23,248 nucleotides of DNA from Psammoneis japonica (lineage: Eukaryota). Below are positions 1-20,887 of the stretch, in pieces (position 1 is the stretch's first letter; each line of letters begins with the position of its first letter). The notes under the pieces were generated by a model, which saw nothing but the letters and a program-made list of their open reading frames with translations, was not told the origin of the DNA and searched no databases. The position numbers and the translations under genes are program-made. The DNA lies in the NCBI GenBank assembly GCA_008632985.1, contig QPGO01000139.1, positions 186,001 through 209,248 on the forward strand, given 5' to 3'.

Positions 1-128
1 AACCATCTTGAGTTTGAGAAGCAAGCAGCTGCTGCTTGAAGCAATGCTCTGGCTTTTTTTGCTGCTCCTGTTCACTGCTTGATGTGGAGCAAGATGTTGT
101 GCTCAACAAGCCAGTGCCCAGTCATTGC

Positions 129-393
129 TGTTGGAGTTTCACAGCTTGCCAGCTGGCACACGTTTGGTCTCACTGACTCCAAACTCACTGAGCAGCTCAC
201 AAACACATTCATGTTGCTGTCCACTGCTGTTGCCATGTTGACCGGGTGCAGAAGCTAAAAAGTCAGCACAAGGCCAGCAACCCAAACTGAGTTGCAAATG
301 CAAATTCAACAAGTCATCCACAATCACCAGTGTGTCTCACACTGCAACTTTGTCTTTCTGCCTGTCCTGCAAAAACCACCTCTGGCCCTGATG
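129..393. repeat. LTR-like repeat, left copy (lacks the last 8 bp of the right copy)
   Basis: Starts TGTTGGAG and aligns colinearly with 9640-9900 (first 30 nt identical, one 4-nt indel). Preceded by ATTGC at 124-128. Confidence 0.85.
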
Positions 394-699
394 CGAGAGC
401 GACACTTGGAGACCATGCCACCCAACACCACTTTGACTGCTCTGCTTGCTCCTGTGACCCACATCATCCAACTCTGCCAACAAATGGCCTGCTGTCTGGA
501 CAATTCTTCCTCACATGCCCAACCTTGCTGCATTTCCAGCATTTGGTCTGCTTCCTCTCATTCTGCACAAAGCTTGTGCCCTCACCAGGTTTTCTTGTTG
601 GCCCTGCAGGTGCCCAAAACCTGCAATGCCCCCTCAGCTGATTGGAGCAAATGTCAACCCCACATGCAAGCTGTCAGTGTGGGTCTTTCAAGACATTGT

Positions 700-1400
700 G
701 CCAACATTTCTTGGCACCTTCCATCAGCATCGCTGCTGGCAACTTGCTCTTTTCTTTGTTCTGGGTGTCATCAGCATCCTTGCTGAACCACAACCTTTTT
801 TCTTGGTGATTTTTTCTGGGGGACAACCCTGCCATGGGATGTTTCTGCCATCTCAACAATGCTCGTGAGCTGATTCTGGTGATCTTCAAGTGCCTCCACT
901 TGAAACAAGATTGGCTGGAGAGTTTGGCGCAGCCCTGCCACTCCCCACTCTTCAAGACTCCCCCACAAGCTCCGCCGCCATTTCAATCTTGTGACAAACA
1001 GCCTTTGCACATTGTCCCGCCATTGCATCAAATGCCTTTGCCCTCCACATCTCACAGATTGCACTCTGTTTTGTGCAGCGACTGCATTGCTTGCTCCAGA
1101 TTGCCTTGTCCTTCTCTGATGTGGTGTCTCCCCGTGGATGATCTGGCTCTTCTGGCATGCTCTCCTGCCTCAGAGATGTCATGTTGCCTGCATCTGGGCC
1201 CAAACATTCTTCCGACATGCTCGCCAATCTTCCTCATGGTTTCTGTGCAACCATCTGCCTGTCATCCTGACTCAGCAATGGCTTCACACACCCGCTCCCT
1301 TAAATCTTTCTTGCTTCCGAACTCAGCTGTGTCCTTGCCTGCATTTTCCAGGACTTGTGTTGGAGCATCACCGCTCACCGACAGCCACACGTGGGGCACT
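700..1400 (-). pseudogene. Degenerate Ty1/copia-type gag remnant
   Basis: Broken minus-strand frames read ESG*QADGCTETMRKIGEHVGRMFG and AKAFDAMAGQCAKAVCHKIE. These resemble, from memory, the diatom copia Gag motifs 'Y.KT..KI.EYVGR.YG' and 'K.F..I.GQC...MK.K.E'. Boundaries approximate. Confidence 0.45.
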
Positions 1401-1483
1401 GTTGAATGCAGTGACTCCGAAAGGCGATGTGCCATGTTGGTTGTCTTTTTGTTGGGTGCTGCATTGCGCCGCACAAAAAAAAT

Positions 1484-1610
1484 GCACGCATGTCACAGTG
1501 GTGAACAAAGAGTTAAACTACATTAGCAGTTTTCTGCTCGACATTTTTGTTCTCACAGGGAAAAAAGGCGTGCATGTCGCTGTGGTAAACAAACACCTGG
1601 TAAGAGTTAA
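1484..1610. repeat. Short imperfect direct duplication, each copy followed by GAGTTAA
   Basis: gcacgcatgtcacagtggtgaacaaa (1484-1509) vs gcgtgcatgtcgctgtggtaaacaaa (1568-1593). GAGTTAA at 1510-1516 and 1604-1610. Confidence 0.7.
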
Positions 1611-1892
1611 TGGAAAATGCTGGAAGTGACATGCGTGTGCCAAACAGCCCTTCCCACACAATGCGGAGCGGTGTCTCATCCGTTTTGGAATGTTTTCGAT
1701 GAGCACCACAGATGCCATCAATGTGAGTGCCGTCATCACAATGCCGTGCATCCATCGACGCGACCTGCCATGCCGCAGTCTTTGAAGAGTGCGATTGTAA
1801 GGTCACAGTCGGTTAGAAATCATTCCACGAAGAACTCACCAGTCCGACGCAAATCGCACACCGCGAGCATTGTCTTAATTGTCCTTGCCCTC

Positions 1893-4800
1893 CTATGCAC
1901 TGACGGCAGGCCACGCGCTGTCTTCGCCATTCGCGGCATCATCATACTCATGTTCTCTGAACTGCTGAACAATGCCATCAATCTCTTTGTACCTGTTTTG
2001 ATCAGTCAGAAGCAACCGCAGAATCTTGACTTTGTCATCGTTATAGGAGGCGTCTGCATCCAAAACACTTGTGCGCGCACAAGCAAAGCTCTTGGGCCCG
2101 GCCACAAGGGTCTTCGACGGATATTTCTTGAACTCGTTGGCATAGATCACCTCGCATACGCACCAAAGCCGGCGGTAGAGGTCGACTTTTGAATTTCGCA
2201 AAACAAGGAATTCCTCCGCTTTTTTCAGCGCCTTGACAAACGGCGAATCGTCGAGTGAGACGTTCAATTGGTTTCCAACGGTGCCCTCGTCACCTTGTAA
2301 AAGGGCAAAGGAGCAAATCCAGAGATTTGGCTTCGTCGTCCTTTCGAGAAACGTTCTACGAATGGAGTCAACGAAAACACAAAACTCTTCATCCCAGGCG
2401 TGTGTAACAAAAACGTCTACCATTCGCCCCTGGGGATTCAAGTGAAGAGCGTACGATGTTCCTTTCTCATTGCAGACAGGTGTGACAATGTCTTTCACAA
2501 CATCTCTCATGGTCTTTTCGTGGTATCTGGCTCCGTACTTCTGCTTAGCCTTGTCGTGCAACGCCATTAGCTGCTTATACGCTATTGACCACATTTCAGG
2601 GCACTTTTGTAATTTTTCGTTGGTATCGGATCGGTGTGCTGTTGCAATGCTGGAGTTGATATCCCGAGAATACCCATCGCTGTCTTCCGCTTGATCTGAT
2701 TCATCATCTTCTAGGAGCCTTTCTTTCAATTTCCTTAGCGATAGTTTCGGGGGTAGACTAGAAAGCCGCAACAAACAGTCGCATGCACTTGAATCAGTGC
2801 CTTGAGCTTTCATGATATAGTAGTCTCCGTTCAAGCTTATTTCGTAGGCCGTTCCCATGCCTAACCAACAGCTTCTCTGCGATGACTTTACATTCAAGTT
2901 GATGGCAATTAGAGTGCTGCTTGTCTCCAAGTAATTCACGCGGCAAATTAGCTTATCTTCCATTGCATCGGCAAGCCTCTTTATCTCCGTAACGGATACG
3001 ATGCGGGCAACTCTTGGGTCTTCGTCTGATACGAACTTTGTCAACTCGTCTGCAGCAACGTGGGCATCCCGTCCAGTCACCTTCTTCTCAATCGTCGAAA
3101 AGAGCTGTTCAACGTAGTGTCCAACGAACTGAAACGACGAGCTTGTTGGTGTGCTTGTCAAAACCTTCTCTTTTTGCCCACCACCGTGGAGATGTAGCAC
3201 TAAGGTTACTTCATCATCGGATTGTAAATCATAGTTGGAAAACGACATCCAGTCCAAAAGCTCTGAATCGCCCTTGCACAGATGTTGATGCTCAGTGGGA
3301 ATCCGCAGTTGTCTCTCGATTTGTTTTTTCAGAGCAATAACTGGATCCAACGGTCTCAGTCGGAATCGCGTGGTCGTGCTATCCATCATTGTCCTTACTA
3401 CTATATCAATTGGGGGTAACTGTTCCGAATCTATTGCAAGATTTCTGTTTTAAACAAGACAAAGAAGGACGTACGAAACGATGAGCCCCTATCAGTCGTG
3501 CAAGCCCCGCAGAAGCTACTACACCGACAACAACGACCGTATCACATATGCTTGCACTTACACCAAGTTTAGCAAGTTGTCCAGTTCTCGTTCCTTGCCA
3601 TTCTGAATGACGCGGATGCCACCTTCCTTTATTCCACTCTCTGCCACAACAACATTGTTAGAAAGAGATTCGCCCCTACACGAAAGCTGCTGTTGATCCG
3701 TAGGAATTCCCACCAAGTCAAAAACTTCTTTTTTCACATCATGTATTGTGCTTGAATATTTTACACGATCAACCACAATGATATGGTTCGTGCCCTCCAT
3801 GACTACCACCGAGAATTCTGTTTCAGTGAATTCCGAGGTGTGTATACCTCGCATCTGTCTTCTTGTGCTATCTGACACTAAATTCTTGTCCCGATCGATG
3901 TCATCTGGCAAAAGATACTCAAAATTGCTGAGAGATTTTGTAGCTGGTGGTGGTCCAGGCTCGCAGACAGCACCCGGCAGTATCGATGCATCTCTGACTA
4001 AGAGTGGTCTCGTCGACGAAGCGCTCGATGATGGACTGGCTGAAGCAACACCGCCTACATCGGTATGACTTTTTAAGCTGTCCAACACTTGGTTCGCACG
4101 CTCAGCGCATCGATCGGGAAATCTGTTTGCGGCTAGTGTCATCAGAGTGAGCAGCTCTGACGTGCTCTTTCGAATCAGCACGGCATTGTCAGCAGAGAGC
4201 AAAAAGTTTCTCATCGCAACGCAAGCGTGTTCTTGAAGCTTCCAAGAGTCAGGGAAACGTCGCATCGCAGATATTATTGCACTTATTTCACCTTCGGTAG
4301 CAATCATCACTTCGTTGGTGTGGACGTTCACAGCTAAGCTGGATAACGCTCGACATGCTTCAACCTGCAACACCTCTGAATCGTAGTGGGACCACATTGC
4401 GAAAACAATAGCATCCACCCCTCCCGCATCCCGAATTAAGTTCTTGTTACGAGAATTTGAAGAAAGCGTGCATAAACACCCACAGGCCTGCTTTTGAACC
4501 ATTTCGTAGTTGATGTTTGCCATCATTCCGTTCACTACAAGTCCAATTCCGCCTGCGTCCGCGATGACAACTTGGTTTTGCTCCAACACGGCCAGGCTCC
4601 ACAAGGTAGTGAACGCCCTCTCGAGCACGGTCGGAGCTCCCATGAATTCCTTCATTGACGCTGTCACCGCATGGATACCCCCAACTTGAGCTATTTCTCT
4701 CTTCGCGGCCGAATTTCTCATCGCGACATTCTGCAAAACTCCAAGTCCCTTCTCTTGAAATCCTTGAGCGTCTGGGTGATACCTCATAAGGTCCACAACG

Positions 4801-7800
4801 GTCTGCACAGTACTCGTGTCAGCTATAGCTTGCTCCTCTATGTCGGATGAAAGATTCAAAAGAGCAGCGCAAGCTCCTTCAATGAGCTCAACATTGTCTC
4901 TGTTCCTTGGTGTTTTCATGGCATTTACAACCAAAATGAGTCCTCCCTGTGACGAAATCAGCATCCTGGACTCGTGGTCGACGCTTAAATGCGACAAAGC
5001 CTTACATGCATCCATTTGAATGCGGTCGTTCTCGGTGAAAACCGCCAAAGCGCTAACAAGCATATCGATTCCATCAGTCTCGGCTATACAAAGATTGACC
5101 TGGAGATTCTCAGTCGAAGAAAGAACAGCGAGAATGGAACAACCCCTTTCTTGGATACCTTCTGACGATTCGTGCTCGACCATCGTGTCAATTACTACCA
5201 CTATGCCTCCACATTGAATAACCATGCCTTCGTCGATCAACGATAAGTTGAATATCACATCCATAGCCTTCTCTTTCAACTCGATTCGATCCCGGTCGTG
5301 CTCCAGTATCATATATATTATAGCAATGACGGCGTCGACATCAGAGTTATCGAGCTGGTATGAGTGTTCTCGCATGGCCGTTGTGATGGAGACAAGTGCC
5401 CGCATTCCCTCAAATTGCAAATCTGTCTCCCCTCGGTACAGAGACATGGCGCCAACAATTGACTTGAACATCTTCTCCAACAAAGACGACGACTGCTTCT
5501 GCTGCTTGGCTACTAAAGCCCATAAAACGCCAAACGCCTCCAGCCTTAAAGACACCTCCTCAGAGCGCTGGTCGATTATTGCCGTAACAGCGTTAACTAG
5601 CACCTCACCCTTCATGGCATTGGAGCTCGGCTTGGAACCAAGCAACAGATTTCTAAGTACCTTGCAGGAAAGTTTCCGTGAGGCTTCGGATTCCAGTTTC
5701 GTCTCCATCGCATCTACTATTGCATTGACGCACTCTGGAGGTAATATCGCAGGCTTCCCGCTGTCGGCTACCGCTAGGACAGAAATAAGCTCCATTGCTC
5801 GGCATGCGGAGGGCTCCGATTCAGACTCCTGCAGGATCTCAGTGGCAGCATCAAGACAACTACATGCCACTAGAGCCTGCCTGTTCCTTTCAGACGACGT
5901 CGCAATCGCACAAAGCGCAGAACACAACCCCACCCGACCAACTGGGCCGCTGTTGAGCGCTGCATCGACGAGATCCTCCATAAGCTCAGAATCCATTGAT
6001 CTTGACGGAGATTGAATAGAAAGGTATGCAAGCGCACGGCTAGCTTCTTCGCAAACTGAAGGGTCAGGCAGGTCCAACGACAATGCCCGAATCGGAATCT
6101 CCGATGGTAGATCAGATACTTCTGTGATCTGCGCAACAGCAACGTTCGCAACGAAGGCGCAAGCTGCGGCTTGCAGCGGAGCCGAATCTAAGTGGTGGTT
6201 AGTACCGAGAATCAGCGCCTGAAAAGCATCCGGCAGGCATTCTTGTAGAACGGGCGGCACAGCAGCAGAGAAAGCCCAAAGGAGGTGACTTCCAGCTTCC
6301 ATGATCCCCCTGTTGGCCGGAAATTTCACCATTGCGCTCACCACGGCTTGGATTCCGTGGGCTTCGTTGATACATATCTTGCAATCCTTTCCGACGGCGG
6401 CCATCGTTGAAAGGAATCCACAACACGCTTCTTGCAAAGATTCGATTTCGTCGTTAGGTTCTAATACCATAATGCGTGCCGTCGCGAAGATACCCTCTGT
6501 CGCACTTTTTGTCGCGATGTTGTCATTCCTTATCCCCAGAAGCTCACATAAAAGTGACACAGTCATTTCAAACAATCCAGGAGTCGTAGACGGTGCCTTC
6601 ATCAGATCTGTACACATAACAACTCCGTCTTCATCCTTGATCTTTTTCAAAACTTTCTTTGTTGCATCACTGTCTTCCTGGTCAAGCAAACGCCATAGTA
6701 GTTTCATTGCCCACTCTTCCACAAAAGGCTCCTTTTTTACATTTTTCATCGCCTTTGTAACAGATGAGACGACTTTAGCATCGATAGCAGCAGCAATGTT
6801 GCTTCGTATCACTCCCTTCCCTTTTTCAAGATATTCAGGGTCTTCGTCTGAAAAGTGAACAAGGCTATGCATCGAACGACACGCCCACTCCAACACCACG
6901 CCAGAACTTGCATTAACGGTCAAGATCCTGGCAATGGCTTCAATTCCCCTTGCTCCAGCGATCGCCTCCATGTCCTCGGGGAAACTAGCAAGGCACGCAA
7001 GTAAGCCCAATGCCCAGGGCATATAATCAATCTCTTTCTGCATTCGGGAATTTCGAAGGGACTCGACAACGATCTGGGCGACCCTTGTTTCACTTGCCAC
7101 GGACATGCTCTCGTCGCTAACAGCTACTAATGCCCACATTGCACCGCATGCTGCAGCCATCACTCTGGCATCCGCCACGTACGTGCCCATGAGGTCTCTA
7201 ATATCATACACCGCTTGGTTCTGTTCGTCCGGCGACGGCGTTTCTTGCAAAGTTGGCCCGAAATTTCTCAGCTTGTGCAACTTGCGTCGCACCAGAATCG
7301 CATCGCCTTTTATTCTGGGGTCACGGAGATCCGCAAAGATCTCCGACGTGCTTTCTTCCGTCCTGCCGCCGGTGTAATCCTCTTCTGCAACCCTGAGCGG
7401 AGGTTGTTTCGGCTGGATATGCCGCGAAGACGTACCTGATTTAAACATTTTTGAAGATTCAGGAGCGGGTCTATGGGATGATTCTGAGGCTGAACGATGA
7501 AGAATAAGTTCTGAGGCTGATCGGCGTTGGCGACCGTGTTCGGAAGCTGGTCGAAGATGACTGTGAGAAGAATCTCCGAAGTGTCGGTTAGAAGCATCGG
7601 ACACGTGTCGGTGTGATGATTCTGGTTTGTGTCTACTGGATGGATCCTGCACGTGTCTCCTGGACGAGGACGACACGTAGTCGGAGTACCAGTTAAATGA
7701 TGAATCTGCCATGTGTCGATGGGAAGGATCTGCGATGTCTCGTGTTGATCTTGGCCGGTGGCGCCGTGCACTATCACGTGAAGTAGAGCCTCCACGTCTA

Positions 7801-8090
7801 TCATCACGCGGAAAAGCTTGCATGTATTGGGTGTGAATGTGGGCCGGTACCGTATCAGCGTTGCAGCGAATGCAAGTGCCGTTGTAAACGTGATCGTTGC
7901 TGAGCGGTTTCATCTTCAAATACTTTTTCTCATGAGTCTTGACACCGCACCGAAGACACACTCCTCTCCTCTTTGCTATACTTTCACGTTCTGCTTGGCT
8001 GAGGGCTGTTCCGTGCTTGTCGAAATACGGAATAGCGTTGCTGTTCTGGATATTGTTGAGTTCATCGTATGGATTAGGTAGACCGGACAT
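1893..8090 (-). CDS. 2026-aa multidomain protein: N-terminal CxxC motif pair, armadillo repeats, two ubiquitin-like domains, C-terminal HET/TIR-like domain
   Basis: Exons 8090-3562 and 3444-1893. A 117-bp phase-2 intron (3561-3445, GTAAGT...TTTTAAAACAG) joins the 1510-aa and 498-aa ORFs in frame (..NLV-NLAIDSEQLPPIDIVVRT-MMDS..). Motifs: CLRCGVKTH..GTCIRC; many ARM units (e.g. GGIHAVTASMKEF, VQKQACGCLCTL); Ubl1 IHDVKKEVFDLVGIPTDQQQL; Ubl2 LKKQIERQLRIPTEHQHL..LVLHLHGGG; then FVTHAW, LWICSFALLQ, SPF, RRLWCVCE. Confidence 0.88.
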
Positions 8091-8340
8091 TCTGAAGATT
8101 GAAAGCGATTCGATTCGTTAAGAAGCCAACTCTCAGGCTGTGTGCCAACCGAAGCTTAAAAGCCTGCTCTGCTTCACCAAAATCCCATCGGTTCGAACAC
8201 ACTCAAAAAGTTGGAAATCATGTGCGGATTTTGTTTGGGCTCCTCCTGTGCGTACCGTGTATCATAGGGCTAGGGTACCGGTAGCCAATTGGTATGAGTT
8301 GTTCTGACCTTCTTCCGTCGCACCTCCCGTCCCGCGCCGC

Positions 8341-8348: not shown

Positions 8349-8699
8349 TCCATGACGTTGGACGCTGTTGATCTGCTCTGTACGTTGTGCACATGTTGCA
8401 GCCTTAGAGTTGCACTGGCTAGTCTTTTTAATCAATGCACTGCTGTTGAGGATGTCACTCGCTGATGGATGGAATTGTTTCTTTGCGAATCAGTCGTCGA
8501 ACGAGAACTCCTGTCGCGAGCTCGATGACTGTTCTCGTCATCCATTTCAGTGCAACTCAAATGAGACATGGCATTTCCAGGTGTGCATGCCAAGCAACCA
8601 GTGACCCTGTCTTGCTGCACAACTGCATGGAAATTGGCAGATCAAGATTGTAGCTGGCAGATTCGTTCCGCGCACTTCTCGTTGACGTGGGTTGTGACG

Positions 8700-9480
8700 T
8701 GCGTGCGCCCCACGCTGCTGCAGGTGAACCCCGGAAAACTTCTTTGAGATCATTGAGATCAGTGCTCCAACCTGAAACAGCATCAAGAATGTCACCTCAA
8801 TGGAAGACATCAAAAACATCACCCCTCTGGCTTGGTCAGGATCTGCAAACAAGGCCAAGCTCCATTGCGTCACCAGGCTTCCCCTGTTGTTGCTCGTCAG
8901 CAGATTCCACAAAGAAGACAACCAGCGGTTTTGGCAACCTCATTGATCACAGCATTCATGCCCACCTTCAATGACTGTGACCAAGTGCATGATGGAGACA
9001 AGAGCTGCAAGAAGGCACCACTTTTCTGTGGGCTGTGTGGCTCATGAGAAGATGCCTGCTTTTGCTCAAAGCACACCACTTCAAACGAGGTGGTTGTTCT
9101 CCAACAGCTCACTGACCTCCTTGACAAGCACGTTGTTTCCACCAGTGCAAAAACCAAACCCCCAAGGTCCAGCTTCAGATGCCTCAATGCAAGGTGTCAC
9201 TTCCAGTGTTGCCAAACTCACGACCCACCTCCTGCTGTCGTCTGATCACTCTGACTGCAATGATCGACTTCAGAGCAAATCGAACAACTTCAAGAAGCTG
9301 GCTCTCAAAGCACAACAGATGATTCTGTTTGGATCTTCAGTTGATGGAGACACCAGCCCCAATGGCACTCAACAATGACATCTTGCAATGTGAGGATGGA
9401 CTGGGGCCCTTCAGAACTCCACAACCCTCTCCAACACAGCCAACAAGGCCCTCCAGAGATTGTTTTTTTTTTTTCACCCT
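8700..9480 (+). pseudogene. Degenerate transposon-like ORF remnant (possibly ORF1 of a DIRS/Ngaro-type element)
   Basis: Tyr-free, frameshifted segment containing FKKLALKAQQMILFGSSVDGDTSP, which loosely resembles diatom retroelement ORF1 sequences as I remember them. Family assignment is weak. Confidence 0.3.
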
Positions 9481-9534
9481 CGTCCAGCCGGGCAGCTTGT
9501 TTGCCACAATCCACTGACATGAGATGTGCCTTTG

Positions 9535-9596
9535 GATTCCTGTTGACTTTCCAGCCTTTGACTGTAGATCCCTGTTGACTTTCTAGCCTTTGAATG
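9535..9596. repeat. 32-bp tandem duplication
   Basis: gattcctgttgactttccagcctttgactgta followed by gatccctgttgactttctagcctttgaatg. Confidence 0.9.
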
Positions 9597-9639
9597 ACGC
9601 CACTCCTTTGAGTGTCATGCCGTCACTTTTTGGCTTCTG

Positions 9640-9908
9640 TGTTGGAGTTTCACAGCTTGCCAGCTGGCATGCATTTAGTCTCACCAACTCTGAGCTCACC
9701 AAGTGGCTCACAAACATGCTCCCATTGCTGTTAACCACCATCACCATGTCAGCCGGGTGCAGAAGCTAAAAAGTGAGCACAGGACCTGCAACCCAAACTG
9801 AGTTGCAAACACAAATTCACCATGTCATCCACCATTGTCAGTGCATCTTACACTGCAACTTTGTCTGTCTGTCCTGTGAAAACTGCCTCTGACCCCAATG
9901 TTCCAACA
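9640..9908. repeat. LTR-like repeat, right copy (269 bp, complete termini)
   Basis: TGTTGGAG...TTCCAACA, i.e. TG..CA with a 7-bp terminal inverted repeat typical of copia LTRs. Followed by ATTGC. Confidence 0.85.
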
Positions 9909-10014
9909 ATTGCATCTCAGCAGGTGCAAACAACACATTGCAGTTTTTGCATGGGGGGTGCATGCCAAGTTGGGGGGGTCTCAATTGGTGCAGTGCCACT
10001 CTTTCACAGACAAG

Positions 10015-10620
10015 AAAGGAGCCCCAGTTGTTGTGACATCAGATGTGACCCAATGTGGAGGAATTCTCCCTGATGCTTGAATGTGATGCTTGGTTGTGGC
10101 AATGGCACACAATGCAAAAAAGCTGGGTGGTGCCCCCTCTGCTGTGTGTGCTGCTTTTGCCACACAGGTGTGGAGACAAAGCAAATTTTGGAATGTGACC
10201 ACAAGGAACATGATGTGCTGGAGTCTTTGCAAGTTGTGTCCAGTGCATTGCTGCATGTGTGAAGGATGCACATCAAACTTGAGGGATTTTTCAGTGGCTG
10301 GCACTTCTTGTTGAAGAACATCTTTTTTGAGGAGCAGCACAGGGCTGTCAAAGGAGCAGCCCCCCCAGTGGTGACATCAGAAACTGTCCACCATGGTAAA
10401 ACACCCCTGTTGTTCATTCAAATGATCCAGAGATGCCAGGACATGCCAATGACAGACATGCAATGCAAAGCCAGATGCCCACAGGTGGCGCCCCATCTGC
10501 TGTGCATGATGCTGCCTTTGCCACAGGTGCAATGAAACAAATGTCCTGAATGGCCACAGCATCATTTTGAGCTTGAACTTGCACAACCACAATCCTTTTT
10601 GTCTTGGCATCATTGCAGCA
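10015..10620 (-). pseudogene. Decayed unknown ORF with two internal repeats of about 340-360 bp
   Basis: Minus-strand fragments VAKAASCTADGAPP..RGVLPWWTVSDVTTGGAAP and VAKAAHTAEGAPP..GRIPPHWVTSDVTTTGAP. Shared DNA core gtgacatcaga at 10033 and 10371. Confidence 0.5.
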
Positions 10621-11125
10621 AAAAGTCTCAGGACATGCCAGTTTGCACAGGTGTGCAGCAAGCACTGCAATGCCAAAGATTGGCAAAACTGCCAAGGGGC
10701 ATGCAACACGGCAGATTGGAAGCATTGCATGAATTTGCTGTGTGCTTGAGACCATGCTCATCATCTCCAGAGGGCTGTGCAAATTAGATGTCTTTTCTTC
10801 GCCCAGGGAAACATGGTGGAATGGTGTGCGCACTCCAAAAAAGCATTCTTTACGAAGCGAACCTAGACTTTGACAAGCGTGTCTTACAATCCAGTCTGTT
10901 TCAGGTGCTGTAGCGCATGTTTATCCGACTATTTCATACGTTGTAGCTTTGTAGCTAAGATTACCACTGTTGCACTTTCTCTCTCTCTCGATCGAAAAGT
11001 AAGGTGCGTGTGCACGCGAGAAGAAGCTAGGGCCCTGCACTACTGAGGTTCTTCACGAGGTTTTGGAGCGGAACAAAACCCTGAAATATGTTTCAGTTAC
11101 GTGCAAGTTGAACACAATCGCTATG

Positions 11126-17898: not shown

Positions 17899-18210
17899 GA
17901 TGTTGTATATGGGTGTTGTTGTTAGAATGAGAGTTGGAATTGCGAAGTTGTGTTATGTTGGTGTTGCTTGTGTTGCTTTTTCGTTTGGATGGACTACCGT
18001 GATGTTTTCGTAGAATTCTACGTGAGTTGTACTACCAGATACCGACAGTACGTCCGTGACCCGCTCCAGCCAGCCAGAGATGCGATCTTTCTTTCTCTGG
18101 CCGTCGTCCGAAAAAGATACCATACGATCTATGCGATATGCGATGGACGACGATGACAACACAAGCTGACAACGCAATCTGTTCACAGTTCATCAACAGC
18201 AGCAGCAACC

Positions 18211-18403
18211 ATGTCGTCGGAAGAGCTCAAGACACCACTACTACTCCTACTACCCCACCTTCTTCTGCTGTTGCTGAGAAGAAACGTCCGCTTGGTGACA
18301 CCACCACCACCATGTCGTCGGAAGAGCAACAAGACACTACTACTCCTACTGCTGCTACTACCCCGTCTTCTTCTGTTGCTGAGAAGAAACGTCCGCTGGG
18401 TGA
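18211..18403 (+). repeat. Tandem duplication (101-bp spacing) of the DEK start region
   Basis: atgtcgtcggaagagc...tgttgctgagaagaaacgtccgct(t/g)ggtga occurs from 18211 and again from 18312. Confidence 0.9.
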
Positions 18404-19278
18404 GTACGACAAGGATCCCATCATTCAAGGCAGAGGCAAACGCGTTCGTAAGTCCGCCGAGTCCTTTAAACCAGAAGCCTACGACAAGGCTCCCGTCGAG
18501 CTTGTCTATCAGGGACAGGGCACGCGTCTGGGGGATATCGAGTCGACTGCCAATCATGTCGATTCGGTACTCAAGCCGCACGAACTGCTCACGGTGCATC
18601 GCTTTTTATACGGAAGGCGTGCCAAGGTTTCCAACAAGGAAATGAAAAGTGACATTTTGAACTTTAGTGGGTATCTCAAACCAACGTCGGAAGAAGATGC
18701 GGAACGCTTTAATCATGATGTGGAGGTGTGTTGTAGTTGTTGTATTGTTGTTGTGTTGCTGTATTGATTTTCATCACGTAGACTTACTCTAATTCATACT
18801 CTCTCTCTCTCTCTCTTTCTATTCGTTTTTCTCAATTCAGGCCAAAATGACGGCTCGTGCCAACAAGCACAAGCTTGCCGAAATCAAGGCGCTCTGCGAT
18901 GCACTCCAGGTGGACCGCCGTTCCAGCAACAATGACAAGTCGCTCAAAACCAAGGAAGACTTTTGCGATTGTCTCTTGGAATTCTTGGCGGAACCCAAGG
19001 AGGAACTCACCAAGGGCAATACCAAAAAGAAAACGAAAAGCAAAAAGACGAGTGCTTCTGCCAAGAATAATGACGACGACGACAATGACATTGTCTTGGA
19101 GTATGGCAAAATGCCCAACGACAAGGCCTTGCGTAAATGGGTCAAGGCATATGTCACGTGTTGGAATCTCGACAAGGCCACGACCAAACACGCCATGGAA
19201 GTAGCGAGCGACAAGTTTGGTGTCGACTTGTCCGAGAAAAAGAGTGTCATCAAGGAAATGCTAAAGGAAGAAATGTAA
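18312..19278 (+). CDS. DEK: DEK chromatin protein, 283 aa (longer if the upstream duplicated ATG is used)
   Basis: Exons 18312-18725 and 18841-19278 (GTGTGT...TTCAG). GQGTRLGDI..LLTVHRFLYG..ILNFSG; SAP-like LAEIKALCDALQV..LLEFLAEP; DEK_C PNDKALRKWV..ATTKHAMEVASDKFGVDLSEKKSVIK. Confidence 0.88.
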
Positions 19279-19963: not shown

Positions 19964-20219
19964 GGTGTTGTGTTGTGTTGTGGGGCTGCTGGTGCTAAAC
20001 ACGAGAATTGGATGAAAAAACGAAAAAAGCTTTGAAAAAAGAAAAAACCAAGNAAAGGCATTTTCAAAAAAAAAGAAAAAGAGGAAACGCGCCAGAAAAT
20101 CTGTCGTACAAACTGTACCACGCCAAAACGCATGTACAATCTACGAACCGTCTGGTATTCTGCAAATGCCGATGGCATGTCATCACTCATCACTTTTTTT
20201 TCTGTCGTCGTAATCCACC

Positions 20220-20887
20220 ATGACGGTCGTTCATGCGCTTCCCGATTTACCTCTTGTCTGCTTGAAAACGGCAGACTTTACCAAGACGACAGCCACTGCG
20301 TTTCAAGGCAAAAATACCGTGATTGGTATGTCCTTATACGAGAGAGATTGAGTCATGTTGTTGTTTTGATGCCATCACGACGCATCTATGCNNNNNNNNN
20401 NNNNNNNNNNNNNNNNNNNNNNNNNNNNNNNNNNNNNNNNNNNNNNNNNNNNNNNNNNNNNNNNNNNNNNNNNNNNNNNNNNNNNNNNNNNNNNNNNNNN
20501 NNNNNNNNNNNNNNGGACGTTCATTTTGTTTCCATTTGTTGTGATTCACTCGACGGAGCTCGTGAAATTCTGGAATCTCCGAAAGACGAACCCAAATGGA
20601 ATGCACTGTCACACTTTTACATGGACCATGCATCGAAAGAACAAGCCAAACAATACTTTGGTTTCAAGTCGGTACCCTTTTACGTTGTCGTCCATGCCGA
20701 TGGGAACATTGTACAGCACGGCAACAAGGTGGATTGGAACGATATTCCTGGTGTAGAAGATGCAAAAGAGAATCAAACCGCAACAACCAAGACAAAGCAA
20801 CAACAACAAGTAGTCGTTGAAGATCCGCAGCAACAACAAGAACCCGTCATTGCAGAACGGGTCTTTACCATGGATGAGGATTTCTAG
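20220..20887 (+). CDS. Thioredoxin-fold (redoxin/TlpA-like) protein, interrupted by the assembly gap
   Basis: Exon 1 20220-20325 (MTVVHALPDLPL...FQGKNTVI) then a GTATGT donor. After the gap: DVHFVSICCD..AKQYFGFKSVPFYVVVHADGNIV..FTMDEDF*. The expected active-site motif would lie within the Ns and cannot be seen. Confidence 0.7.
20392..20514. other. Assembly gap (123 N)
   Basis: Run of N. Confidence 1.

Follow-up and report, generated by a model that had tools for sequence, protein, structure and literature searches.

The DNA analysed here is a stretch of 23,248 nucleotides from Psammoneis japonica (assembly GCA_008632985.1, contig QPGO01000139.1, positions 186,001 to 209,248 of the forward strand), which we call the window and number from its first letter. 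Two domains in which the dinucleotide TA (TpA) is nearly absent and CG (CpG) is strongly reduced lie on either side of an expressed gene with armadillo repeats. Domain A is cut by the start of the window and carries the decayed gag of a Ty1/Copia-type long terminal repeat (LTR) retrotransposon. Domain B is larger and shares a high-copy repeat segment with domain A. The features on which the analysis turns are given below in their order along the window.

1 to 1513, no strand assigned: TA/CG-depleted domain A, cut by the window start; 2 TA and 24 CG in 1-1500.
129 to 388, no strand assigned: high-copy repeat segment, copy 1, directly 3′ of the gag; 79% identical to 9640-9895.
494 to 1330, minus strand: decayed Ty1/Copia-type LTR retrotransposon gag (tblastn with protein P0121, combined E 1e-41).
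494 to 544, minus strand: CCHC zinc knuckle of the gag remnant (Pfam zf-CCHC, E 7.5e-4, 19.9 bits), aligned with the knuckle of P0121.
1474 to 1593, no strand assigned: short duplicate across the border of domain A, with 1474-1506 inside and 1561-1593 outside; 27 of 33 aligned bases identical.
1527 to 8187, minus strand: flanking expressed gene with armadillo repeats and ubiquitin-like domains (Pfam; spliced contig of run X2), which bounds both domains and lies outside the element.
8540 to 10784, no strand assigned: TA/CG-depleted domain B; 8 TA and 26 CG, TG+CA excess of 241 against a deficit of 245.
9527 to 9590, no strand assigned: tandem 32-nt duplicate in domain B; unit 2 keeps 2 TA where unit 1 has TG and CA.
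9640 to 9895, no strand assigned: repeat segment, copy 2, inside domain B.

In domain A the loss of TA is close to complete. The two TA of 1-1500 stand at 256 and 1301, where 88 would be expected by base composition (observed/expected ratio, hereafter o/e, 0.02) and 55 from the TA density outside both poor domains (710 TA in 19,380 bases, which is the window minus the two TA-poor domains; Poisson P 2e-21). The 24 CG correspond to an o/e of 0.26, while the window background predicts 86.5 (P 2e-15). Conversely, TG and CA are in excess, with o/e values of 1.98 and 1.75. An initial annotation of this DNA had reported the two TA and their positions, about 24 CG, an abundance of TG/CA and, for comparison, 18 TA in the stretch 2521-2820; its counts are exact. 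However, it had extended the domain to 1790, whereas the TA-free state stops at 1513, and it had described a single domain, overlooking the larger one at about 8430/8540-10784. The right border of domain A is sharp: 213 TA-free bases are followed by TA at 1514, 1519 and 1524 and then at 1586, 1601 and 1608. Between 256 and 1301 lies the longest TA-free run, of 1045 bases, against a maximum of about 200-230 outside the two domains.

Domain B shows the same signature as domain A. Its TA-poor state starts past 8429, and its 8 TA and 26 CG stand against 82 (Poisson P 1e-25) and 129 expected, with a CG o/e that ranges from 0.03 to 0.26 by sub-stretch. In the remainder of the window the o/e is 0.50 for TA and 0.92 for CG. 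The depletion of TA and CG in 1-1500 is thereby confirmed and extended to a second domain.

The identity of domain A was obtained from protein comparisons. Residues 4-307 of P0121, a protein of 343 residues, align with the window in four collinear tblastn segments that run on the minus strand from 1330 to 494 in frames -2, -3, -1 and -2, with the CCHC zinc knuckle at the end of the alignment; the Pfam score of this knuckle is slightly below the cut-off of 20.8 bits. A profile built from 14 relatives matches 482-1321 and nowhere else in the window. The gag relic is split by frameshifts over three reading frames and is non-functional. P0121 and the other relatives were found by a full HMMER scan in which the read-through minus-strand frame served as query, whereas a word-based protein search with the same read-through gag frame returned no relatives. 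The P0121 family consists of intact proteins of about 310-390 residues from Logan, ENA and JGI data. In two distant relatives on metagenome contigs (L003 and L012), the gag heads a gag-pol open reading frame (ORF) of more than 1,350 residues, which runs to the end of the fetched locus and holds both zf-CCHC and RVT_2, the Copia-type reverse transcriptase domain, within one ORF. Since RVT_2 is part of the gag-pol ORFs of its relatives, domain A is, judged from sequence comparison, certainly the relic of a Copia-type gag. It resembles the Ty1/Copia-type (CoDi-like) LTR retrotransposons of diatoms in its CCHC-knuckle gag related to RVT_2 gag-pol ORFs, and it differs from them as a copy without pol, LTR or CoDi clade assignment. 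In the window there are no pol remnants, as tblastn with the longest ORFs of 11 related loci matched the gag region only, and no LTR pair was found. The element is cut off by the window start, so that pol, if present, may lie outside the window.

Pfam searches in all six frames of both domains, with stops read as X, matched the zinc knuckle in domain A and nothing else; domain B gave no match. Domain B also gave no match to the gag profile or to pol, and its stop-to-stop ORFs look non-coding. Apart from the shared repeat segment, domain B thus appears to be without a recognised ancestor. A metagenome scan for the gag family yielded at least 58 loci; among the matches listed there were only distant relatives (20-37% protein identity), and near-identical JGI cluster mates of P0121 were absent. 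In contigs of the public run X1, the summed depth on 1-1468 is 10-23 times that of the neighbouring genes, a summed contig depth being no copy number. This pile-up, together with the 351 of 708 X1 contigs aligned to the window that are less than 90% alike, indicates that numerous diverged relatives of the family are present in that sample.

The direction of change was assessed at tyrosine codons. Tyr is encoded by TAY only; a single change of TA to TG gives Cys and a single change of TA to CA gives His. The alignment comprised 14 intact members of the family (P0121, P0132-P0142, P0126 and P0144). Left out were P0145 and P0146 (near-identical cluster mates), P0143 (weak), P0129 (a fragment of 63 residues) and P0122-P0125, P0127, P0128, P0130 and P0131, whose listed best stretches fall on the knuckle region. 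The codons of the window copy were mapped through the P0121 segments, which gave 258 codons after removal of 2 overlaps. Eighteen columns have a Tyr majority and 16 of these are covered by the window copy, which carries Tyr at none of them. The 16 codons found instead are the following.

Cys (TGY): 6
Trp (TGG): 2
His (CAY): 4
Gln (CAG): 1
Phe: 2
Leu: 1
Tyr: 0

Codons starting with TG or CA thus occupy 13 of 16 Tyr columns (8 TG, 5 CA), compared with 31 of the 236 remaining columns (Fisher 1e-8). None of the 16 Tyr columns has kept its majority residue, against 78 of 150 columns in which another residue has the majority (P 2e-5); for Lys, 13 of 23 columns are retained. Where the codons of the majority residue begin with TG or CA anyway, the window copy has kept it at 10 of 11 columns (Cys 4/4, Trp 2/2, His 1/1, Gln 3/4). 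At three of the six Arg-majority columns the window copy now reads TGT or CAG, which is the CpG half of the signature. The initial annotation had named equally TA-poor intact copies as an observation that would speak against its reading. The intact relatives carry Tyr at 9-18 of the 18 Tyr-majority columns, with Phe as the commonest substitute, and their gag proteins have 11-21 Tyr overall. Furthermore, the gag DNA of related metagenome loci has a TA o/e of 0.54-0.85 in 15 of 15 cases (L001-L012 and L014-L016; the other 43 loci, with short or partial matches only, were left out). The family is therefore not natively TA-poor, and this objection does not apply. As a separate observation, one relative with an intact ORF (P0135, from JGI) has 3 Cys and 2 His at the 18 Tyr-majority columns, and raised numbers of Cys (10) and His (9) in the whole protein, which could reflect the same TA erosion at an early stage, in another organism.

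A second line of evidence comes from the two copies of the repeat segment. Over 261 aligned bases they differ by 53 mismatches, 34 of which form 17 adjacent pairs where TG faces CA, while 42 TG/CA sites are concordant. Three relic sites are also present, one each of TA/TG, TA/CA and CG/CA. A direct change of TG to CA needs two simultaneous substitutions, whereas TA and CG are one step from both, so that a TG/CA discordance points to an ancestral TA or CG. If both outcomes were equally likely in each copy, the 17 discordances correspond to some 34 ancestral TA+CG sites, or to about 39 in 261 bases when the relics are included. Unmutated DNA has roughly this density, and CG by itself could account for about half of it. 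The pattern demonstrates that each copy resolved its putative ancestral TA/CG sites separately, after the duplication. The 14-16 mismatches left over amount to a divergence of about 6-7%, while about 90% of the inferred TA+CG sites have been converted in each copy. As a rough inference, the conversion rate per base at TA/CG sites would be about 30 times the background or more.

Smaller duplicates show the same kind of difference. In the duplicate across the border of domain A, the outer copy has CG where the inner one has CA/TG at three sites, and TA where the inner one has TG at one site. CG/CA and CG/TG relic pairs occur among the duplicated copies. The repeat segment itself has a summed X1 depth of 3780 in the bin 9543-9909, against about 58 beside it (about 65-fold). 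Rfam and tRNA scans found no RNA gene in this 260-bp segment, and it contains no recognisable short interspersed nuclear element or tRNA derivative. One TA, at 256 in the first copy and 9767 in the second, is present in both within an identical block of 22 bases. Three perfectly conserved blocks of 22-30 bases occur in the repeat despite an overall divergence of 21%, which suggests constraint or gene conversion on part of it.

The changes are specific to two dinucleotides. TG+CA exceed expectation by almost exactly the number of TA+CG that are missing, with 157 against 156 in domain A and the near-identical sums listed above in domain B. In 1-1500 the other A/T dinucleotides show no depletion (o/e of 1.37 for AA, 0.83 for AT and 1.08 for TT) and the G+C fraction is 0.50-0.51. 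A general pressure from AT to GC, or GC-biased gene conversion, was rejected because AA, AT and TT are kept and G+C is unchanged. Strands are treated evenly. On the plus strand TG and CA number 176 and 163 in domain A and 252 and 269 in domain B; on the sense strand, the codons at the Tyr columns include 8 with TG and 5 with CA. This balance implies that both strands were affected alike, which argues against editing of packaged RNA or of a single cDNA strand.

The extents of TA loss and CG loss differ along the domains. In 860-1500 there is 1 TA against 35 expected, and there are 19 CG against 43; in 8651-9565 the figures are 1 against 56 for TA and 21 against 57 for CG; in 9754-10489 there is 1 CG against 44 expected. 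These differences in extent indicate two processes at work. Decay of methylated CpG accounts for the change of CG to TG/CA, that is, for one half of the signature (CG o/e of 0.03-0.3; the Arg columns), and it is probably the source of the CG loss. However, TpA loss is beyond its reach. Domain A has lost 53-86 TA, and TA is gone in 860-1500, where CG is half retained; the initial annotation had likewise stated that deamination of 5-methylcytosine cannot remove TA. It had also set the signature apart from fungal repeat-induced point mutation (RIP). RIP changes C to T mainly at CpA and so creates TpA. It resembles the process seen here in that dinucleotide-context transitions wreck transposon copies in place, on both strands, and leave a compositional scar. 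In the window, by contrast, TpA is destroyed while CpA and TpG are created (o/e as given above). RIP was rejected because its direction is opposite.

A change of TA to TG or CA never makes a new in-frame stop, from which follow long spurious ORFs and translations rich in Cys, His, Trp and Gln. Three ORFs of 163-230 codons lie on the plus strand opposite the gag relic (292-786, 834-1526 and 1138-1629). They owe their existence solely to the absence of TA, without which neither TAA nor TAG can occur, and they would mislead gene callers. The signature explains both the long spurious ORFs in relics and, through Tyr replaced by Cys or His with no new stops, their escape from homology-based annotation of transposable elements (TEs).

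Contig depth varies between and within the domains. At 80% likeness, the parts 8442-9175 and 9910-11000 of domain B have single-copy depth in X1, whereas many similar contigs cover domain A and 9543-9909. A contig joint that skips from 1460 to 1561, seen in a single row, indicates that the repeat family may run past 1513 into TA-bearing DNA. The mutated zone may then follow something other than the ends of the element, although this is only a hint. The initial annotation had proposed a repeat-targeted conversion of TpA to TpG/CpA on either strand. Conversion and its action on both strands are upheld by the Tyr columns (13 of 16) and by the balance of TG and CA, whereas repeat targeting of a RIP-like kind is not established, as much of domain B is at single-copy depth. 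A short CG-rich patch (10 CG in about 75 bases, 8660-8735) stands in TA-free sequence of domain B, on the upstream side of the armadillo-repeat gene; it has kept its CpG though TpA is gone.

We consider it highly probable that the two domains are relics of mobile or foreign DNA between expressed genes, mutated in place by a process that turns TpA into TpG/CpA and, in addition, by CpG decay. Relics of this kind would have been inserted between the genes. After insertion, two context-specific processes would have acted in place, both ending in TpG/CpA. The first would be the ordinary decay of methylated CpG, with C to T on either strand. The second would be a TpA-specific transition of A:T to G:C, by which TpA becomes TpG on one strand and is read as TpA to CpA from the other. 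This TpA process would exceed the background rate tens of times or more, and it would be restricted to these domains. Sequence comparison establishes direction (TA lost, TG/CA gained), dinucleotide specificity, strand symmetry, independence of the copies and confinement to domains. By analogy with what has been proposed for the chlorarachniophyte Bigelowiella natans, we infer a targeted hypermutation of silenced DNA, akin to a defence. The chemistry may be a deamination of adenine in DNA at 5′-TpA-3′ to hypoxanthine, read as G, which we put forward tentatively. TpA is palindromic, so the sequence cannot separate A to G from T to C. Alternatively, thymine at TpA could be oxidised to 5-hydroxymethyluracil, followed by mispairing or faulty repair, or adenine could be modified.

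Several points weigh against this interpretation. De novo mutations were not seen, and the reasoning proceeds from one window and protein relatives. Targeting by silencing is a supposition; contigs of the run X2 do not cover 1-1468 or 8442-11000, which speaks neither for nor against silence. Transition-biased decay of any kind also yields His and Cys from Tyr, and the weight of the Tyr columns lies in the completeness of their loss in comparison with other residues. The closest intact relative is usable as protein only, and the DNA relatives that were fetched are 20-37% identical in protein, which precludes a base-by-base polarised spectrum. For domain B, which is without a known ancestor, the case for TA loss is built from composition, mass balance and a pair of small internal duplicates. 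Finally, the rate estimate of 30-fold or more from the repeat pair is rough.

The closest parallel is described in a preprint by Mettrop et al. (bioRxiv 10.64898/2026.01.13.699255) on mutation-accumulation lines of B. natans, which supersedes the remark in the initial annotation that no characterised mechanism was known. Of the 302 new nuclear mutations reported there, 231 lay within two integrated viral regions. With a single exception these 231 were A to G or T to C, and every one of the latter occurred at TpA. Mutation proceeded at about 1000 times the background rate, and only some lines were affected. Coding sequences of B. natans that are poor in TpA and rich in CpA and TpG are enriched in reverse-transcriptase and DDE domains. 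As the enzyme, an ADAT2-like adenine deaminase acting on DNA is proposed by these authors as a hypothesis.

Like the B. natans regions as described there, the window carries A:T to G:C changes at TpA, spares other A/T positions and confines the changes to islands. The two systems agree in their end products, TpG and CpA, symmetric across strands, and in their restriction to islands of foreign or mobile DNA beside normal genes. They also share a long-term state of low TpA with high CpA+TpG, which in B. natans includes reverse-transcriptase and transposase domains among the TpA-poor sequences, and in both single-copy DNA can be a target. The differences concern the organism, the evidence and the outcome. 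B. natans is a chlorarachniophyte (Rhizaria), whereas the genome examined here is diatom-like (Stramenopila). Mutations were seen arising in culture there and are deduced from sequence here. The targets are DNA of nucleocytoplasmic large DNA viruses (NCLDV) and virophages in B. natans, and a Copia-type retrotransposon with unassigned relics in the window. The TA o/e reaches 0.02 here, a near-complete erosion, in comparison with 0.45 in the NCLDV region of B. natans, and the strong loss of CpG alongside has no counterpart in what the accessible text describes for that alga. We regard the signature of the window as the same as that of TpA hypermutation in B. natans, now on a diatom-like retrotransposon, near-complete and coupled with CpG loss.

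Among the other explanations, an untargeted effect of age fares best and is nevertheless unlikely. Here the change of TpA to TpG/CpA would be the strongest neutral mutation of the genome, old unconstrained TE relics would have reached equilibrium, and all other DNA of this compact genome would keep its TA through selection alone. The background of the window, with a TA o/e of only 0.50, does indicate some genome-wide loss or avoidance of TA, and the single-copy depth of parts of domain B implies that repetition is not required. However, the repeat copies differ by about 6-7% at other sites, yet conversion has reached about 90% of the TA+CG sites inferred for them. A genome-wide rate as high as this should also empty introns, whereas the intron 3445-3561 of the armadillo-repeat gene (GT..AG) has 8 TA in 117 nt. 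The flanking genes have a TA o/e of about 0.5-0.8. The normal TA of these genes and of the intron argues against a genome-wide neutral bias, as do other, presumably non-coding stretches of the window (TA o/e of 0.35-0.81) and the sharp domain borders.

Editing before integration is quite improbable. In this explanation the RNA or cDNA of a retrotransposon would be hyper-edited by an ADAR-like or other deaminase and then inserted. Such editing by ADAR or APOBEC enzymes likewise leaves deaminase-made clusters of transitions in mobile-element sequence, but it acts on RNA or single-stranded cDNA with strand bias and in a looser context, whereas the changes in the window are strand-symmetric and strictly at TpA. 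That domain A is a retroelement and that copies differ from each other would fit, as would the preference of ADAR enzymes for a 5′ U, mentioned in the Discussion of the B. natans preprint (10.64898/2026.01.13.699255). The strand asymmetry to be expected is absent both at the Tyr codons and in the TG and CA counts of the two domains, and AA is undepleted (o/e 1.37), which a loose 5′ preference would not predict. Moreover, the repeat joint from 1460 to 1561 reaches TA-bearing DNA, a hint that the mutated zone is not the whole element, and in B. natans the changes arise in place within integrated DNA.

We judge it very improbable that TA was never there, be it through a foreign compositional signature or through selection against TA or against TAA/TAG stops. 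For domain A, native composition or selection is already contradicted: none of the 16 family Tyr codons is kept, the relatives have normal TA, and the gag is frameshifted and non-functional. The 17 TG/CA discordances likewise testify to change after duplication. On the other side stand domain B, for which no ancestor was identified, and the one TA (256 / 9767) that is conserved in both repeat copies. An assembly or sequencing artefact is extremely improbable, for although the window has assembly gaps (1 N at 20053 and 123 N at 20392-20514) and the only runs containing it come from one sample, maybe the source of the assembly, separately assembled X1 contigs match the domains with 0-3 differences and no known library chemistry strips TA and CG while sparing adjacent genes.

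In-place mutation at TpA, the explanation we favour, has consequences beyond this locus. To our knowledge, TpA-specific destructive mutation had no precedent before the 2026 preprint on one chlorarachniophyte. Its scar in a diatom-like genome suggests that the process is not peculiar to one alga and makes a second lineage available for comparative enzyme searches. Diatoms are genetically tractable. In practice, low TpA with a matching excess of TpG+CpA offers a simple sequence marker for silenced foreign DNA. A broader proposition is speculative: diatoms might actively defend their genomes by domain-targeted editing of DNA, in which TpA would be erased (A:T to G:C) from silenced transposons and other foreign DNA, beside cytosine methylation, through the same pathway as in the rhizarian B. 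natans. If this were true, TpA editing would be an old genome defence widespread in the Stramenopila-Alveolata-Rhizaria group, with an enzyme that could be found by comparing lineages. The significance would be lower if the process were an untargeted neutral bias. In the accessible text of Maumus et al. 2009 (PMC2806351), which deals with diatom TEs, no mention was found of RIP, dinucleotide, deamination or hypermutation, and a second paper on diatom TEs gave the same result. Likewise, in the accessible part of the literature on diatoms nothing was found that joins TpA with hypermutation or retrotransposons.

The genes of the window lie on the minus strand and have long exons and few introns. 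By Pfam they comprise the armadillo-repeat/ubiquitin-like gene, an enoyl-CoA hydratase-like gene and an FGAR amidotransferase (a purine enzyme). A fragment of 538 residues of the latter is 72-86% identical to many marine proteins, and 79% identical to one labelled as from the pennate diatom Cylindrotheca fusiformis; a protein atlas gave bacterial clusters only for this enzyme. We call the genome diatom-like on the strength of this single named match and of the intron-poor gene structure. It is unlikely to be that of B. natans, whose genes are rich in introns. The structure of the armadillo-repeat gene was refined by a contig of run X2 that joins 3562-3905 to 1527-3444 and skips the intron 3445-3561. 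On account of this intron-skipping contig, X2, which is listed as 'DNA?', behaves like cDNA. The skipped segment holds the stop of the ORF 3558-8090. The armadillo/ubiquitin ORF of 1510 residues and the ubiquitin-domain ORF of 498 residues therefore probably belong to a single gene, whose product would have about 2000 residues and two ubiquitin-like domains.

Within the same gene, the segment 7338-7862 occurs in both runs in two versions. One equals the window, and the other has 53 differing and 45 gap letters in about 520 bases. In 4297-5801, the sole contig differs at 21-25 places, with insertions of 15 nt and 3 nt. These variants represent strongly diverged alleles, haplotypes or strains of the armadillo-repeat gene. 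Farther along the window, the ORF 18138-18767, which has no Pfam match, contains at 18234-18403 a direct repeat of 65 nt with a spacing of 105 nt and 85% identity, which looks like a repeated peptide module.

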